Below are positions 5,931 through 42,900 of a stretch of 64,000 nt of DNA, piece after piece; within the stretch, counting starts at the first letter, position 1; each line of letters opens with the position of its first letter. The stretch comes from a virus (lineage: Duplodnaviria; Caudoviricetes). A model generated the notes under the pieces. The model ran no database searches, had not been told where the DNA came from, and worked only from the letters and a program-made list of their open reading frames with translations. The stretch lies in IMG/VR virus record IMGVR_UViG_3300042307_000844; one strand, given 5' to 3'. The position numbers and the translations under genes were made by a program.

Positions 5931-6605
5931 TTAATTTAAAGGAATGCCATAAGTCTTGGCATATTCTTTCGATTTCTGGTCAAAAGGATAAATTGTCCCA
6001 TGCCACAGGAAATCGTTTCCCGAATCGATTGCCCCCAAAGGACGGACTTTCACAATCCACTCGCCCATATATTCGCCTTTGGAGTTTTTAAATTTTAATT
6101 TACCAGAAAACTGTGAAAATACATCGGTTGAATCCTCCCATCTACGCATGTAATCATCAAGTTGATGTTCGTCTTCCACGAAATTTTTCCAATTTAATCT
6201 AAGCAATTCTTCTGATGATGTTGCACACAGATTACAATATGCTTCATTCACCATAATATTAAGACCTTTGGAGGTAACTCTAAACGATGGTTTGGGATTG
6301 AGCCAAAACATAGCCTCTATTTCAGCTTTGATTATTTTCACAGAATCCCGCATGGAACCCCCACCATTCGGGGATATTTCATATTCAACATTTTTTAAAC
6401 GATCATCAATATTTGACACAGTTCCTTGAATATTTTTTAAAGATTCTGGTATGGAATTCCGAGATTTAATATATTCCTGACGTTCCTTATATTTTTCGAC
6501 AATAAAAGTCCTGAGTTGTTTCCAAGTCAATATAATGGCACCAATCGCCCCTAGAATAATTTTTATAAAATTGGCGTGTTGTTGAACAAAATCGTAAAAA
6601 TCCAT
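5931..6605 (-). CDS. Membrane-anchored protein with coiled coil and C-terminal PAS-like domain (possible holin/lysis regulator)
   Basis: Hydrophobic IKIILGAIGAIILTW, coiled coil to PNGGGSMRD, then the PAS-like NIMVNEAYCNL...LNWKNFVEDE. Confidence 0.6.
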   Translation of the reverse strand: MDFYDFVQQHANFIKIILGAIGAIILTWKQLRTFIVEKYKERQEYIKSRNSIPESLKNIQGTVSNIDDRLKNVEYEISPNGGGSMRDSVKIIKAEIEAMFWLNPKPSFRVTSKGLNIMVNEAYCNLCATSSEELLRLNWKNFVEDEHQLDDYMRRWEDSTDVFSQFSGKLKFKNSKGEYMGEWIVKVRPLGAIDSGNDFLWHGTIYPFDQKSKEYAKTYGIPLN

Positions 6606-8836: not shown

Positions 8837-10429
8837 ATGGCCGATAAAATTTACAGAAATAGGACGATACTAAACCAAAGGGGTGGCTCTTTGGTGATTA
8901 CAAACACAACCGATCAGGAGAGCATTCAGCTTTCCCAAAGATCGGGAAGCAATGTTCTGATGAACAATCTGGTCAATTCAGAACTTGCCACTAACAACAA
9001 GCAAACCCATGTCATCAATGATAATTTTGAGACTGTTCTGAATGATGATAATAAATTCGTAAAAGGCGTTCAGACCAATCGTGTGGGAAATACCAGATAT
9101 GATTTCAAGGGGTTCCTGAAAGACGAGGAATTTGATGCTTACCAGCAATGGAAAGACACTTTTAATTCGGTGGCATTGGTAAATTCCAAATTCAAAATCA
9201 AACGGGGAGGAGTATCCGGCCCGAATGGTGTGGATACTGATTTGGAAGGAGAACGTGCGGACAATCCGGTGATCGGTTCCAAGGTCTATGTTGTCGAGAA
9301 TAAGTTCGGGGGGTATATAAAATTACCCCGAAGATTATCATCTACAGATGAAGTTACTGATTATTCCCCCGTTCCTGACCGTGGCAAGACCAAACCAGCG
9401 GAAGAAAAAGATATAAAAGAGGAGGATATTTCCAAGAGTGCGGGAGAGCAAGGATCGAAAGCTCCCGGTGTTTTGGAATTTGGAGCAAATAAATCAGCAG
9501 CTACGGAGAACGGGGAATGGGAGCCGGAAGAGGATGCCCAAAACATTGCTGATGCTGTATTGGCAATTCAGGAAGAACTCACTCCCATTGAAGAGAAGAT
9601 GGGTGATGGGGGGGATGAACATATCATCGTCAAGAGAAACAAAATTGAAACGGTGGGAGCGATTTTCAATGATTACCCATCGGTTCGCATTGATGAAAAA
9701 GGGAGAAGTCAACCATTTGAAATGTTGGTTGGTGATACGGGTGTATATAAAAACCATGATTACATTCCCCATGTGGAAGAAATAGATAATTCTTCCAATT
9801 TCCCTTGTGGACAGGACACTAAGATTGTGGGCAATTCCTACAACCGTATCGTCGGTTCCGGTGGCATTTCCCTGAAGACCACGGGAGCCACCGAATTGGG
9901 GGGAGCCACTTTAAAAGCCGGATTCAAAAAAATAAATATTAATGCTTCCCATGGTGTCCACATTGGATCGGAGAACGCAATTGAATTGCAATCCATGAAA
10001 ACCATCGTTCTCCGCACGAACAGGCAGGTTTATATCGAATCATCCCTTGGAGTTAAAAATAACTTAATTGTGGGGGGTGGTCTTGCCGTGGAGGGTCAGA
10101 CATACCTCCAAGGCGTTACTGCCCCGCTGGAGGTGCAGCAGACGGAAAATACGCTGGTTTCCGGCAGGTTCGCCACAACCACTGATCGCAGCTTGTATAT
10201 TGGGGACTGCGAAATTGCAGGAGAGTATTATCCCGTGTATGCCAGAGCCGCCGATGACCTGATTGTGACGTATCCCCATAGCCACCACTTCAACAACCTA
10301 CCGTTGAAACTTATGGAAGCCAATGAGGACGTTCGGAAGGATGCCCACAAGAACGGTATCAATGTCCACAATTCGATTGCCCAAGCGTATCCTCAGATGC
10401 ATGAGAAGAAGAAACCGCAAAAGGGCTAA
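8837..10429 (+). CDS. Baseplate spike gp5 C-terminal beta-helix-like protein
   Basis: Follows the OB-fold ORF directly; VxG-type beta repeats; His-rich C-terminal tip (YPHSHHF). Confidence 0.6.
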   Translation: MADKIYRNRTILNQRGGSLVITNTTDQESIQLSQRSGSNVLMNNLVNSELATNNKQTHVINDNFETVLNDDNKFVKGVQTNRVGNTRYDFKGFLKDEEFDAYQQWKDTFNSVALVNSKFKIKRGGVSGPNGVDTDLEGERADNPVIGSKVYVVENKFGGYIKLPRRLSSTDEVTDYSPVPDRGKTKPAEEKDIKEEDISKSAGEQGSKAPGVLEFGANKSAATENGEWEPEEDAQNIADAVLAIQEELTPIEEKMGDGGDEHIIVKRNKIETVGAIFNDYPSVRIDEKGRSQPFEMLVGDTGVYKNHDYIPHVEEIDNSSNFPCGQDTKIVGNSYNRIVGSGGISLKTTGATELGGATLKAGFKKININASHGVHIGSENAIELQSMKTIVLRTNRQVYIESSLGVKNNLIVGGGLAVEGQTYLQGVTAPLEVQQTENTLVSGRFATTTDRSLYIGDCEIAGEYYPVYARAADDLIVTYPHSHHFNNLPLKLMEANEDVRKDAHKNGINVHNSIAQAYPQMHEKKKPQKG

Positions 10430-19163: not shown

Positions 19164-20687
19164 TTAATTCAATGAATGAAAATATGTAACCCATTCATTG
19201 AATTGGTTCCCCTTCAAAATACCGGAAGCAATTGTTTTCATTTCCTCTTCATTCGGTTCCCTACCAGCATTCAATTCTTCTAGAACATATTCTTGCAAGG
19301 CTGCTGTGATATCCTTGAATTTGGATTTATCCTTGACAAGAATTGGAAACCATTGCATTAATTTATCACCACTGAAATATTGTTTCAGAAGTTTTCTGGT
19401 GTCATCTTCCGATCCTCCAATGTTGGAAACCTTCTCTTCCGCCCTTTTGATCTTCTCCCAAAATTCCTGTTTATTGAAAAGACCAGAACCACGGGATGCT
19501 TCATCACAGTAACCAACTGCTTTGATGGTTTCCCATGATGGATTCTGAATCAGCTTGGTGAGAGTCTTGATATTCAATTTATCTAAATTGTGAACAAGCA
19601 TATGTTTATCAACTGCTGCCAATATGTTCTTTTTATCTTGGGGGGATAATTCCGCAAAACGCAATCTTTTGAAAATTTCCTCAACAATGGGAACTCCCGC
19701 CGATTCGTGTCCATGATAATTACTGAAACCATTATCTTTCTTTCCTCTGGTAGTGGCTTTCCCGAAGTCATGGAAGAGAACTGCCAGATTGATCACAGGG
19801 TCTTTGTATGGTGATGCCTTTAGACATTCATAGATGTGTCCCAGAACTTGGGAATCCCCTTCGGGGTGGTGTTGTGGGTCGTGATCATATCCTTCCATCG
19901 TGGTAAATTCGGGAAGGATATCATGGAGGATTTTGGTGTCCTGTAATTTCTTTAGGAAATTCGCAAGCGTTTGTCCCGTTTTGGCGGATTTGAAAAATTC
20001 CTTGGAAATGCTTTCTTGGGAAATTGCCTTGGGGTCTTGGAGGAGATGCTTCAATTCAATTGCGGCAGCTTTGGTATTATCCTCAATTTCAAAATCCATC
20101 TTGGCGGCAAAACGAAAGACACGGAGGATTCTCGTAGCGTCTTCCAGAAATCTTTGTTTTGCGTCTCCCACGGCACGGACGATCTTGTTCTTCAAATCTT
20201 CCAGACCACCTTGGTAATCCACGATCTTACCCTCTTCATCCAACCCGAAAGAATTGATTGTTAAATCTCGCCGCTCCGTATCCTTTTCAAATGAATCTGT
20301 TTCTGTTGATATGTTGGATTGTCTTCCAATATCGCCGGAGTCGGTTCTGAATTTTGCCAGATCATAAACATAACCTTTCCAGAGAATGGCATACACGGGT
20401 TGGGAATCGTTCTTGGAAATATTTCTCAATTCAAAATGTTTTTCCAATTCTTCCACGGGAATATTGGTAGCCAAATCCACATCATCAATTGCGTTACCCA
20501 TGAGTAGATCACGGGGAACTCCCCCAACGATATAGATTTCTCCTTGTAATTTTGCCTTGATATTCTTCATCAAATCCAAAGCAACTTGGAGTTCTTCCGA
20601 TTCTTTGACAGCGGTATTCCACTTCTCATCAAAATCCTCCACGTATTCACGCATGAGTCGGTGATATAATTTATGAAATCTTTCCAT
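19164..20687 (-). CDS. cca: CCA-adding tRNA nucleotidyltransferase with HD domain
   Basis: IVGGVPRDLL...DDVDLAT, RRDLTINS, RFLEDATRILR, HHPEG...FHDFGK; TATAAATA at 20699-20706 supports the start at 20687. Confidence 0.9.
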   Translation of the reverse strand: MERFHKLYHRLMREYVEDFDEKWNTAVKESEELQVALDLMKNIKAKLQGEIYIVGGVPRDLLMGNAIDDVDLATNIPVEELEKHFELRNISKNDSQPVYAILWKGYVYDLAKFRTDSGDIGRQSNISTETDSFEKDTERRDLTINSFGLDEEGKIVDYQGGLEDLKNKIVRAVGDAKQRFLEDATRILRVFRFAAKMDFEIEDNTKAAAIELKHLLQDPKAISQESISKEFFKSAKTGQTLANFLKKLQDTKILHDILPEFTTMEGYDHDPQHHPEGDSQVLGHIYECLKASPYKDPVINLAVLFHDFGKATTRGKKDNGFSNYHGHESAGVPIVEEIFKRLRFAELSPQDKKNILAAVDKHMLVHNLDKLNIKTLTKLIQNPSWETIKAVGYCDEASRGSGLFNKQEFWEKIKRAEEKVSNIGGSEDDTRKLLKQYFSGDKLMQWFPILVKDKSKFKDITAALQEYVLEELNAGREPNEEEMKTIASGILKGNQFNEWVTYFHSLN

Positions 20688-22744: not shown

Positions 22745-22825
22745 TGGTAGATGCTGAGGGAATCGAACCCAATCTCTGAGAGGATCAAAACCTCTAGTGC
22801 TAAAAAACCGTTACACTACGCATCA
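22745..22825 (-). tRNA. tRNA-Gln(TTG), partly degenerate
   Basis: Anticodon arm AGAGG-TTTTGAT-CCTCT, TTCGATT loop, CCA end; mismatches in the acceptor and T stems. Confidence 0.7.
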
Positions 22826-22835
22826 ATTATAAAAA

Positions 22836-22933
22836 TGGTCTAGGTGACAGGATTCGAACCTGCGAGAGACAGACACTTACTGCCCCCAAGTAGTTCCAAG
22901 CTACCCCGATTACCAAGCTATCGCAACACCTAG
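22836..22933 (-). tRNA. tRNA-Pro(TGG) with 25-nt variable arm
   Basis: CTAGGTG/CACCTAG-A-CCA; GGTAG-CTTGGAA-CTACT; GCAGG-TTCGAAT-CCTGT. Confidence 0.85.
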
Positions 22934-25744: not shown

Positions 25745-25821
25745 TGGAGCGACATGAGGGACTTGCACCCCCCAACCTGATGTTTGGAAAACACCCGCTC
25801 TACTAATTGAGCTAATGTCGC
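25745..25821 (-). tRNA. tRNA-Gly(TCC)
   Basis: GCGACAT/ATGTCGC-T-CCA; GGTGT-TTTCCAA-ACATC; atypical T-loop TGCAAGT. Confidence 0.88.
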
Positions 25822-25822
25822 G

Positions 25823-25910
25823 TTGCGGGAGTGGAATTTGAATCCACAACAGGACTTTAACCTTTCTCTTGGTTATGAGCCAAGGATTTTACCAATTAAA
25901 CTACCCCGCG
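25823..25910 (-). tRNA. Initiator-type tRNA-fMet(CAT) with 20-nt variable region, no full CCA
   Basis: CGCGGGG/TCCCGCA with C1:A72 mismatch; CTTGG-CTCATAA-CCAAG; GTGGA-TTCAAAT-TCCAC. Confidence 0.85.
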
Positions 25911-26756
25911 ATTGAAATTGTATTTAACCATGACAACCGTAATTGTCAATCATCTTCTGTTTGAATTCATCATCAAATCCACTGTAACCAACCAGAACGG
26001 GCAATCCCCCATTATCCCTGAAGTTACGCATGAGATTGACCAACATTTTCACATACACCCTACATTGGGAACGCTCTTTCCAAACATTCCCAATGAGGGA
26101 AGCAAGGGGATAATACCAACCCCACCCATTCATGTGCCATTCGGCAATCTCCTCATGGATCATCTTGATTTGTAGATCGTATTGTTGTTTGCCATTGATC
26201 ATGGGTTCCACGATCTTTTTCTCTTCTTCCGTGATACCCTTGTAACCTTGGGATTCAATTCTGGTAAAAATATCGATCTGTTCCCTTGTCGGTTCCGTAA
26301 AATCGGGGTAATAATTCCTATCCACGAAATGAGCAATCGTCTTGGCGATTTCGTAATGTTTCTTTTTTAATTTCATAATTATAGACAATTTGCTGCCATC
26401 CTTGCCATGTTCCATCCTTCCGTTGTCGGCTCAAACCGCGCACACACGATATGACCGTCTCCCAGAATGTGGGGATCAAGCTTTCCAAAGTATTTCACAT
26501 CAATGTGGCAACGCAATAATAATAATTTATCTCCCTTGAATGTGGTGCATCCCTCGTAATTCACCAGAAGGATCATTCCCCTTTCCAACTTTTCCTCTTT
26601 CAAAATTTTGAATTTGAAAGGGTTTGGATTGGGGGCATAAATCTTTTCCTTTGGAATCTTTAGAAAATTATTGATCGTTGAACTCGATGCCGTTTGGGGC
26701 ATTGAGTTCCTGTCACTGCTTTTTGATAATCCGATTGCCAATCCCATGATGGATTC

Positions 26757-26811: not shown

Positions 26812-27668
26812 ATGAACAAGGATGATTTATCCCTACAACAAATCTACCAAGAAATGGCTCTTTCCAATCTACAAAAGATTGGCAAATGGGATGATAAGAA
26901 AAATCGCCATGGTTATGACAAAGCATCCATTGGGATTTTGTCGTCTCCTGCTGGTTTGAAAAAGCTGGAACAAAAATTTAATAATATTGGTAATTGGGAT
27001 TTTAATTTATATTTCGTCAAGAATCCCAATGCTTGGAAATATGCCGAACAGGGAAAAGTAACCGCTGGTCAACTTCAAGCTAGATTGGGATTGGAAGTTG
27101 GAAAAGATTTCCCCAACCGAAAGGCGATCAGATCACGGTCTTCTTCACAAACAATGCCGCTGCTGAGAAAGTTCCCCTGACCCCATGGACAATCGCTCAC
27201 AGAATTGGTCATGCTTTTGCAAAAACCTTTCGCAATGGTATTGGTTCGAGTAGGGTGGAATGGAATAATGATCAAATTTCAAGAATCCTAAGTAAAATAT
27301 TGGGATGTTATGGAATCCAAAAAGGGTGGTCTGGATTGAGATATTCCGAAGAATATTATATTCGGGACTTGTATCAAAAGATTGGAAAATTCCGCAGTGC
27401 GAGAATGAGTAAGTTAATAAGACCCAATGAATTCTACCACGAAGCATTTGCCTATTGGTTACTACATGATGGGGAACTTGATTTTAACGATCCTCCCCAA
27501 TATCTGACATCATCCAATAAAAAAGCATGGGGTAATCCAACGGGAAGAAATTACATGTTAAAGGATGAGGACGGTGCCACAGAACTTGTTCACCAATTGA
27601 GATATGCTCTGGAGGAAATGTTTCATACCATGGTAGGGGAACATATGGGAGAAATATCCATCATGTGA
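26812..27668 (+). pseudogene. Late gene split by a -1 frameshift near 27110-27115 (HxxxH motif AHRIGH)
   Basis: ORF 26812-27180 and a second frame open from 27084 to 27668 join at TTTCCCC into a coherent ~285-aa protein. Confidence 0.6.
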
Positions 27669-39825: not shown

Positions 39826-39903
39826 TGGTAGTCCGGGCGGGTGTCGATCCCGCAACCTCTCACTTATAAGGCAAGCGCTCTCACCGCTTTGAGCTACCGG
39901 ACA
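39826..39903 (-). tRNA. tRNA-Ile(TAT)
   Basis: CTTGC-CTTATAA-GTGAG; T-arm GCGGG-ATCGACA-CCCGC; ACCA end. Confidence 0.85.
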
Positions 39904-42900
39904 ATTTTTATTTAATTTTATAGGACTTTTTCAAATCTCGCAAATGTTATAAATGTCTTCAATTTCAAAGTGTAGAAGAATCAATTGCCTACGCATCTCC
40001 CCAAGTTCCTTTTTCACTTTCTTCATATGAATCTTGGATTCAAGAGAGATATTTCCTTTTTCTTTATTGGCAATGTCCTGAATCATCGTTGCCAATTGCT
40101 GTTTAATGCTCTCGTATTGGTGCATGATCAAATCTTAATCTAGTTTTTAAGTAGTCGGGCGGTGTATTTGTCAATTGCGGGTTTCAAATCGTAAATCAAA
40201 TCTCTCAAATACAATGCAACTTCACTCTCCCCCGCTGAATGTCCCCTTTCATATGCCATATAGGACAAAACTGAAACAAATTCTTCGGGAATGCTTTTCA
40301 ATAGAAGCTCAGATTCCGTGGTTTCCTCAATCACCAGATCATCGCAAAAATCCATTTCATTTTCAACCTGCTCTTTGGTTGGATATTGGCAAGTGTATTT
40401 ATACTTTGCGCTTGTGCCGATATAAATTTTGTTCATGTTTGAAGTATCCTCTAGTTTTCACTCGCCCAAATATGTCCACCCCACAAATCCCAACCTTTGG
40501 AATAGCTCATCCTTGAAGATTGTTCGTGCTTCCTTTTCCGTCAAACGGATTTCCAGAGTATCCCCTTGGCATCCCTTGATTGCAGCGAACAAATCCGCGC
40601 TTCTCTCAAACCGATACAGACCTGCTTTGTGTTTCATGTTTGAAGTATCCTCTAGTTTTTAATAAGACATGATTCGGTAGAAATCATCATTCTTGTCCAC
40701 CCCAGCACCCGTTTCAGCAAAAGCAATCGACAATCCTTTTATGAACCAATCGGCTTGCTCTTTCGTCAGACCATAGGCGGAATCCCTACCGTTCATTCTC
40801 ACAGTGAAATACCCATTTTTGTCCTCTTTGAGTTCAATGCGGTGTGTCATGGGCTGATTATGGTTTAGTTTTTAAATTCTGATACTCCCGCCCATTCCAG
40901 AAGTTGGACATCCCCTGAATTGATATGCTCTTTCAGGGATTCCAGTTCCGCGATTTCCTCATAACTGATACGTTCCGCTTCAATCTCCCCGCGAAGGTAT
41001 TCCAATCGTTTTTGAATTTCGTTCATGGCTTAATTATCGTTTAGTTTTTAAGAGATTTTGGCAACCATCTCCACCCCATTCAAAGGGCGAGCGAAGAAAG
41101 CTTCGTTCCTATCGCTATTCCATCCCGTGTAAGCGAATTTCCTCCCCTCAAACGTGAGAACCTTTTTCACAAGCTTCTTCACATCATCCCATCCTTCGGG
41201 ACAATCCACTGTCAGGAATTCCCTCCCCACATCTTCCCGGATGCTATGTCTCACTGTCACTTCCTTGGGATCAATTGTTGCTTTCATGTCCGTATTGTGG
41301 TCTAGTTTTTAACCTCTTGATTTTCCTCATTATCCCAAACCATGAAATCAATCCGGTTCAAATCTTTCCTTGGCTTGCGATTCGTGAAACGTTCATTAGA
41401 ATCAGACAAACGAACAATCGTGAATTTGTAAAGATTTGAAAGAGGATTTTTCATACCTTTTGCGGGCGGGGCTTGCCAATGGATATAATACATGTTCATG
41501 TGCTGATTATGGTCTAGTTTTTAAAAGTCGTCCCCTTCCCTTGCAAACCCTACTCACCAGCGGGAGGAAGGGGACTATCCGACGAGAATTTATAGGGCGA
41601 TCTTGGCTTGGAATGCGCCATTGACTCGCGGTTGGATATACGATCCACTCTTGGAATGCCTCACCTTTGCGTCAGGATGCTCCTGTAGGGCGTTTGTCGC
41701 GGCAAAGAACCTTTCCCGCTTGGCTTTCTCTTCCGCCGCCTTGTTGCGCTCCTGAAAGAGCAATTCAACCCGTTCCGCCTTGCGATGGGCGCGATCCTTT
41801 TCCGCGAAGATCATTTTCAGCTTCTCCGAACGTGTGAACACGTTGCCCCTTGATGCTGCTCGGAAGATCGTTGGTGCTGAGTTCTTGCTTCCCATCCAGT
41901 TGCTTTTAAGTGTCGTTGTCATTGTGGTATCAGTGTAGGCTAGTTTTTATGCTTCCAGATTCAGGAGAGTCATACGGATTTCAATGGATACCCGCAAATC
42001 CCTGTCAATCTCGGAGAATTTCTTAGTGTAGAAAAACAAATCTTCCATGAAAATCTTGCGATTGTCAGAGGTTGTTTCGTGAAGATTTGCCTGAAGCTTG
42101 TCGCGCTCTTCGTAGAGACGGTTGATCTTATCTTCGTGGTATGCGATGTGTTCTTGCTTGGTCATGGTGTTATTGTGTTCTAGTTTTTATGCGTCTTGAA
42201 AGTTCTCCAATGCTCGGCAAAGTTTCCGCTTGTCGGCATGATCCATTTGCATTTCACTGGCAATGAACATAATATCACCATCCTTTAGGTTTTGGATGAA
42301 ATCCAGCAGGGCATCCCGCTCATCTTCCGTTAGCTTGTTGAGTTTGTCTTAGTAGTAGGACATGGCTTTATTATCGTTTAGTTTTTATTTTTTCCAAAGA
42401 ATTTAGAAAATCTTCCGCCGCCCATTTGAAATCGAGTGCGAGTGTATTATTTAAAATCGCTTCTCGTAGCCAGAAGGCTAATTTTTCAGCATTGTTCAAA
42501 AATTCATCGTCCATGGGTTCAGTATCGTTTAGTTTTTAATATCCGTTCTCCAATGCCCAATCCTCAATCTGAGAAAGAACCTTATTGGAAATCTTCTCTT
42601 CCCCCCCATTATCTTTCTCAAGGAATCCCATGTCCAGAGCAAGACCAAGGGAAGATGCTCCCCCCGTATTGCTCTCAATGTCACAATATGATCGTTGATC
42701 CCCTCCCTCCTCAAAGAGTTCCAAGGTGACGGTATATTTTCCAAATGTCTTGGTAATGGTTTCGTTTCTCATGGCTTTATTATCGTTTAGTTTTTAAGCG
42801 AAGTTGGTTTCGTATTCCGAATGGATTTCCCCGTTTTTGAAAATATAAATATATTTCACTTCCTTGTGGAAACCTTTCTTTTCCGCGAAGCTGTCCCAAT

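Follow-up and report, generated by a model that had tools for sequence, protein, structure and literature searches.

It is taken as a fixed rule that the initiator tRNA has a short variable loop, and the locus described here raises the question of whether a phage gene with an initiator acceptor stem, a CAU anticodon and a variable region of 20 nt specifies a real initiator tRNA and, if so, what the additional arm is for. The gene lies in a window of 64,000 nt (the whole stretch of DNA analysed) from a T4-like phage of a lake, which encodes a tail sheath stabiliser, NrdA and ThyX. A sequence-only reading had described it as a tRNA-fMet with a class II-like arm, perhaps adapted to leaderless initiation or to the evasion of host tRNA nucleases.

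The CAU tRNA gene

The gene was read directly on the minus strand, from 25910 to 25823, with the C1·A72 signature and the CAU anticodon; the sequence-only reading had not given the strand. ARAGORN called a tRNA-Met(CAU) at 25822-25910 on the same strand, and Rfam model RF00005 matched the gene at 53 bits (E 1.5e-8), treating the additional nucleotides as an insert within the variable region, whose 20-nt sequence is the one previously quoted. Beyond the C1·A72 mismatch, the acceptor stem carries G2-C71, C3-G70 and G4-C69, with A73, and also G7·U66; the acceptor branch geometry is 7/5. The D stem has four pairs, with U11:A24 in place of the initiator A11:U24, and the T arm is closed not by the usual G53-C61 but by A53-U61, which occurs in one of 63 long-arm genes and also in the close homologue L302; neither of these features had been remarked on in the sequence-only reading. 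CCA is indeed not encoded, there being a single C (25822) between A73 and the start of a tRNA-Gly gene at 25821.

The 7-nt anticodon loop (CU-CAU-AA) is supported by U29-A41, G30-C40 and G31-C39, giving two G:C pairs. This had been regarded as an oddity, a view that did not survive comparison: among initiator-type genes on phage contigs, G29-C41 is present in just 21 of the 82 with a short arm and 23 of the 63 with a long arm, so that two G:C pairs, as the majority state in both groups, are no special trait. Contigs from four lake metagenome runs (released 2018-2025), one of which may be the source sample, cover the gene with zero differences, and it is therefore not an assembly error. An Ile2 identity was rejected on account of the C1·A72 acceptor and of a separate, ordinary CAU tRNA gene with G1-C72 (34759-34834) among the 12 tRNAs called in the window.

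Table 1. Features of the CAU tRNA locus and related genes in the window.
Feature	Position	Strand	Remarks
Initiator-type tRNA(CAU)	25823..25910	-	88 nt; C1·A72, A73, without encoded CCA; ARAGORN, Rfam
CAU anticodon	25875..25877	-	7-nt loop closed by G30-C40 and G31-C39 (29-41 is U-A)
20-nt variable region	25848..25867	-	A44 G45 A46, hairpin, ending U48; covariation
Variable-region hairpin arms	25859-25863 + 25851-25855	-	3 Watson-Crick pairs, U·U and U-G in the window copy
T arm	25831..25847	-	rare A53-U61 closing pair
TAAATA box, putative T4-type late promoter	25921..25926	-	10 nt upstream of tRNA position 1
tRNA-Gly(UCC)	25745..25821	-	one base downstream of the CAU tRNA
Phage tRNA nucleotidyltransferase, predicted CCA-adding type	19164..20687	-	candidate for 3'-end completion
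tRNA-Pro(UGG)	22836..22933	-	25-nt paired variable arm; second long-arm class I tRNA of the same phage

The computed lowest-energy fold of the gene (-24.0 kcal/mol) has the arm paired with the anticodon arm, the cloverleaf lying at -22.3 kcal/mol. We considered whether the arm might mask the anticodon by pairing with positions 36-40, as in this fold, and rejected the idea; the pairing is broken in the nearest homologues, L017 and L302, and we therefore take it as incidental.

The variable arm and the tRNA core

Covariation of the arm was assessed in 13 distinct, related members of the 20-nt subfamily, including the tRNA-Met of phage crAss001. All five helices hold across this set, with 98.2% of cells paired, and all four standard stems covary. 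For the arm alone, 96.9% of cells are paired, against at most 58.5% when the pairing is slid, and two-sided changes occur in three of its five pairs; because the members are related, this covariation represents few independent events. The pattern shows the arm to be a real helix, and the proposal of an initiator-type tRNA with a long paired arm is borne out. The hairpin would very probably be retained in the mature RNA. A second, 17-nt subfamily has a shorter and nearly invariant hairpin.

The description 'class II-like' held for the length of the arm and failed for the core. A class II core has a 3-pair D stem, a purine-purine 13·22 and no 13-22-46 triple, and the contacts 13-22-46 and 15-48 belong to the class I core. 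Among 48 distinct genes whose variable region starts with AG, U13-A22 is found with A46 in 39 and C13-G22 with G46 in four, with no crossed combinations; the 15-48 pair is A-U in 35 genes, G-C in 15 and A-C in nine, kinship being ignored in both counts. Three homologues, of the L001 type, have G13·A22. As both contacts covary, position 47 is the best placement for the hairpin, and the CAU tRNA is not a true class II tRNA but a class I core with a hairpin graft. With the class II tRNAs (Leu, Ser, Tyr and Sec) it shares a variable region of >10 nt and a covarying hairpin, but it differs from them in combining CAU with an initiator acceptor, in its 4-pair D stem and U13-A22, in the A44-G45-A46 that precedes the hairpin and in a 13-22-46 covariation like that of class I. 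The tRNA-fMet of E. coli (metZWV/metY) has in common with it CAU, C1·A72, G2-C71, C3-G70, G4-C69, A73, G30-C40, G31-C39 and the 4-pair D stem; the window gene differs in its 20-nt paired variable region (rather than 5 nt), U11:A24, U29-A41, A53-U61 and the lack of CCA.

Distribution of long-arm initiator-type tRNAs

IMG/VR was scanned with a pattern that picks out initiator-type genes having an enlarged gap, and of the 100 matches 58 have variable regions of 12-23 nt. The other 42, with an apparent 11-nt loop, form a separate family and were set aside; these initiator-type genes, found on large gut phage contigs, have a normal variable loop, and the 5' strand of their T stem bulges by 6 nt (for example L004:6383-6432, with ~40 similar loci). 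In an unrestricted sample, three of 117 initiator-type phage pattern matches had long arms, which suggests a share of ~2-3%. A design that recurs in dozens of distinct phage genes is not chance. Across 63 distinct long-arm genes, position 1:72 is a mismatch in 46, an A-U type pair in 16 and G-C in one, and A73 is present in 58; U11:A24 occurs in 43 of them, compared with A11:U24 in 54 of 82 short-arm genes.

Among the members of the 20-nt subfamily are tRNA t23 from the cultured phage crAss001 (MH675552, 5720-5808) and genes of about 25 cultured relatives, so that cultured phages can serve for tests. This tRNA, annotated as tRNA-Met in MH675552 and as tRNA-fMet in OQ198717, shares with the window gene the 20-nt architecture, U11:A24, C1·A72, the absence of CCA and an adjoining tRNA-Gly, but has a stronger arm helix with different pairs, a body only 68% alike and a Bacteroides host. 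A blastn search of cultured phages found no full-length relative of the exact window gene, and only a partial match to crAss001. The arm goes unmentioned in the paper on the isolation of crAss001, which reports 25 tRNAs (PMC6235969). We found no description of long-arm phage initiator tRNAs in the literature consulted, in which subscription journals were sparsely covered; the nearest exceptions described there, nev-tRNAs and allo-tRNAs, differ in identity or in the geometry of the acceptor. The window locus contributes the signature of a class I core and, as described below, the swapping of genes in place between sister phages.

A pattern scan of 185,579 cellular species, which demanded exact motifs that variants may escape, gave 19 matches, none of them a clean chromosomal long-arm initiator. 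The matches include internal duplications, N-gapped assemblies, a normal gene with a chance match after it, D-arm-less oddities and, in L118, one chimeric-looking copy alongside two normal copies. One good example was present in the cellular set, a long-arm gene of initiator type that has a GNRA-type loop and belongs to an 11-tRNA array (L105:4978-6845) on a 7-kb contig of an Anaeromyxobacteraceae MAG. An alphaproteobacterial MAG contains tandem repeats of a D-arm-less CAU tRNA-like element (L102:913-1204).

Promoters and processing

The ATG lies exactly 5 nt past a TAAATA box in 10 genes of the window, dozens of genes have a AAAAACTA box shortly ahead of the ATG, and SD-like motifs precede only 7 of 128 genes, below the 9% background. 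By these motifs the phage is leaderless. In dozens of small genes between 29224 and 62899 (minus strand), the ATG follows within a few bases of a AAAAACTA box and a -10-like hexamer. A TAAATA box stands ahead of the CAU tRNA slot in every sister contig that covers it, and a sigma-70 scan gave no match at the CAU tRNA gene itself. The tRNA-Ile(UAU) gene (39826-39914, minus strand), which also occurs in crAss001 and L017, starts exactly 5 nt past a TAAATA box, the spacing of the leaderless ATGs, and may for that reason need no 5' processing.

Processing of the 5' end of the tRNA-Gly would free the CAU tRNA with an end at A73-C74. A candidate for completing this end is the phage nucleotidyltransferase (PHROG 2244, E 4e-61; NCBIfam CCA models, E 2e-47, under the curated cut-offs), predicted to be of the CCA-adding rather than the poly(A)-adding type.

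Exchange of tRNA genes among sister phages

Sister contigs, found by means of two neighbouring proteins, keep the gene order, the promoter motifs and the TAAATA-CAU-Gly slot, with syntenic blocks ~70-93% identical to the window. The content of the slot varies. In nine sister contigs it holds a short-arm initiator in seven (three different bodies), a tRNA with a long arm and a T-stem bulge in L292, and a non-cloverleaf CAU element in L338, and the sister CAU bodies are only 59-69% like the window gene. Of the homologues whose contigs have genes that can be compared, the nearest (84%) is that of L017, a more distant phage (67.5% in the nrd genes). The comparison indicates that whole tRNA genes are exchanged in place among the sister phages. 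The L292 gene (L292:1890-1983) is a 94-nt CAU tRNA with relatives in L247-L249, L254, L255, L280, L282 and L285, and the element of L338 (7511-7590, the same as that of L293 near 9030-9110) received no ARAGORN call.

Long arms are not confined to the initiator in this group. They occur on Pro in the window, on Lys and Thr in L291, on Lys and Asn in L292 and on Thr in L346, and arms of at least 10 nt were found on 47 of 577 other class I tRNAs (8.1%) beside long-arm initiators and on 2 of 203 (1.0%) in controls, as counted from ARAGORN parses, a few of them doubtful, and with kinship ignored. The arm of the window tRNA-Pro(UGG) forms about 8 pairs; similar long-armed Pro genes are present in L066, L248, L257 and L287, and the sisters have short-arm Pro. 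In the tRNA clusters of L291, L292, L338 and L340-L346 the order of isotypes is mostly kept, and most of the tRNAs, unlike the flanking protein genes, cannot be aligned by blastn. L344, from a relative of the window phage, contains a tRNA with a CUA anticodon (6153-6227), a possible amber suppressor.

Probable function of the CAU tRNA

The CAU anticodon alone suffices for MetRS, and the determinants for Fmt lie in the acceptor stem (PMC9976931), where the Fmt set is complete in the window gene. A11:U24, which helps formylation (PMC7949028), is missing. We suggest the following course, the charging and formylation step being drawn from the known determinants. The CAU tRNA would be transcribed together with tRNA-Gly, from the TAAATA box or from an early promoter upstream, cut free by RNase P and finished at its 3' end by a phage or host CCA enzyme. 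Host MetRS would read CAU, and Fmt would read C1·A72, G2-C71, C3-G70, G4-C69 and A73, probably with weaker formylation for want of A11:U24. The product would then top up the initiator pool for the many leaderless messages of the phage. That the tRNA is used in initiation seems likely to us.

The arm itself belongs to one of several interchangeable bodies that occupy the same slot in this phage group. The likeliest driver of such exchange may be evasion of host enzymes by which tRNAs are cut or modified, since retention of the anticodon and acceptor identity with replacement of the rest of the body is what selection by such defences would be expected to produce; the swapping pattern thus agrees with evasion of tRNA nucleases, one of the two explanations offered earlier. 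Retron-Eco7 and PrrC are known to be countered by phage tRNAs (PMC11555353), and VapC cleaves tRNA-fMet, with evasion patterns reported in phage tRNAs (PMC10264068). The window gene resembles these cases in being a phage copy of a defence-targeted tRNA, but overexpression or changes in the anticodon loop have been described for them, with no added arm (PMC11555353, PMC10264068). Any nuclease resistance of the window tRNA would be steric, because the anticodon loop and the two adjacent G:C pairs, the area of VapC-type cutting, are unchanged. Other results speak against the reading as a whole: the window copy lacks A11:U24 and G29-C41, its arm contains a U·U and its cloverleaf has a competing computed fold, and many gut phages share one identical crAss001-type arm, which for that group fits purifying rather than diversifying selection better. 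On balance we give about even odds to a working initiator with a body that is exchanged because tRNA-targeting defences select for it, and the same to defence evasion as the driver.

Alternative explanations

The tRNA might instead be a working initiator in which the arm has no link to defence, being merely tolerated or else stabilising (through folding, half-life or independence of host modification), and moved by ordinary recombination of tRNA cassettes. The strong conservation of the arm sequence within subfamilies agrees with this, as does the fact that short-arm sisters manage without an arm; it leaves unexplained, however, the fact that within the same phages arms recur on many different isotypes of class I, and the absence of a clean chromosomal example from the pattern scan of 185,579 species, and we think it unlikely. 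Somewhat less probable still is that the gene is not a normal initiator at all but a decoy for fMet-targeting enzymes, a donor of elongator Met, or a tRNA that is wrongly given Leu or Ser by way of its arm. The absence of A11:U24 (PMC7949028) and of one of the three G:C pairs would suit such a role, and of the elements recognised by E. coli LeuRS (PMC9976931) A73, A15-U48 and G18G19 are all present. Yet A20a, a further LeuRS element, is absent, CAU alone is enough for MetRS (PMC9976931) and the Fmt acceptor set is complete; moreover, Leu at AUG would hurt the phage, and the same slot in the sisters holds canonical initiators. Mischarging has a precedent in the nematode nev-tRNAs, which likewise have a long variable arm on a tRNA with the anticodon of a short-arm amino acid, but these are eukaryotic, have Gly or Ile anticodons and are charged with Leu in vitro, whereas the window gene has a bacterial initiator acceptor and the anticodon read by MetRS (PMC3333845).

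An adaptation of the arm to 70S initiation on leaderless mRNA, the other explanation offered by the sequence-only reading, started from a correct observation, in that the phage carries the TAAATA and AAAAACTA arrangements and few SD-like motifs. The arm is nevertheless not required for leaderless initiation, since in seven sister contigs, which have these promoter motifs too, the slot is occupied by a short-arm initiator, and the 5-nt TAAATA spacing is little commoner in long-arm (13 of 108) than in short-arm loci (8 of 87); we consider such an adaptation very unlikely. To a decaying pseudogene one could ascribe the U·U of the arm, A53-U61, G7·U66 and the competing computed fold, but every stem is intact, A53-U61 has changed on both sides and recurs in L302, the sequence is the same in four runs and the promoter box is kept, so that decay appears just as improbable. 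The least probable explanation, in our view a barely credible one, is that the precursor loses the 15 additional bases as an intron. Their excision could leave a normal 5-nt loop; bacterial tRNA introns, however, are of group I or II, at least 100 nt long and situated at the anticodon loop (PMC4033280), and the variable regions span 12 to 23 nt continuously, vary in sequence and keep their internal pairing. The known intron types and the graded arm lengths thus make an intron unlikely; Rfam found no intron family in the window, and no bulge-helix-bulge motif was spotted by eye.

Wider significance

As a conserved natural exception, the long-arm initiator-type tRNA suggests that a long arm may be compatible with the P site, IF2 and Fmt, a property useful in engineering initiator tRNAs. 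One promoter slot that cycles through unrelated initiator bodies is as expected in an arms race, and gives a concrete handle on the old question of why phages carry tRNAs. If a defensive role is true, the arm would be a structure-based form of counter-defence. More tentatively, and with less confidence than for the initiator itself, we propose a class of phage tRNAs missing from cellular chromosomes, in which class I cores of initiator and other isotypes bear a hairpin at position 47 and are swapped between sisters as alleles, the arm blocking immune enzymes while sparing synthetase, formyltransferase and ribosome. Other non-canonical tRNAs with long arms, the allo-tRNAs and the 8/4 phage tRNA-Ser/His, are also found in bacteria and phages, but allo-tRNAs have 8/4 or 9/3 branches and mostly G73 or U73, compared with 7/5 and A73 in the window gene (PMC5389517).

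Two further observations were made in the window. A tRNA-Gln(UUG) gene with an enlarged D loop (22745-22825, minus strand) was missed by ARAGORN at its default setting and found at a relaxed threshold. At 26812-27668 on the plus strand, two frames share what is a single gene of ~290 aa in L291 and L293, and the frameshift looks real in the window strain because the lake-run contigs carry the same letters.
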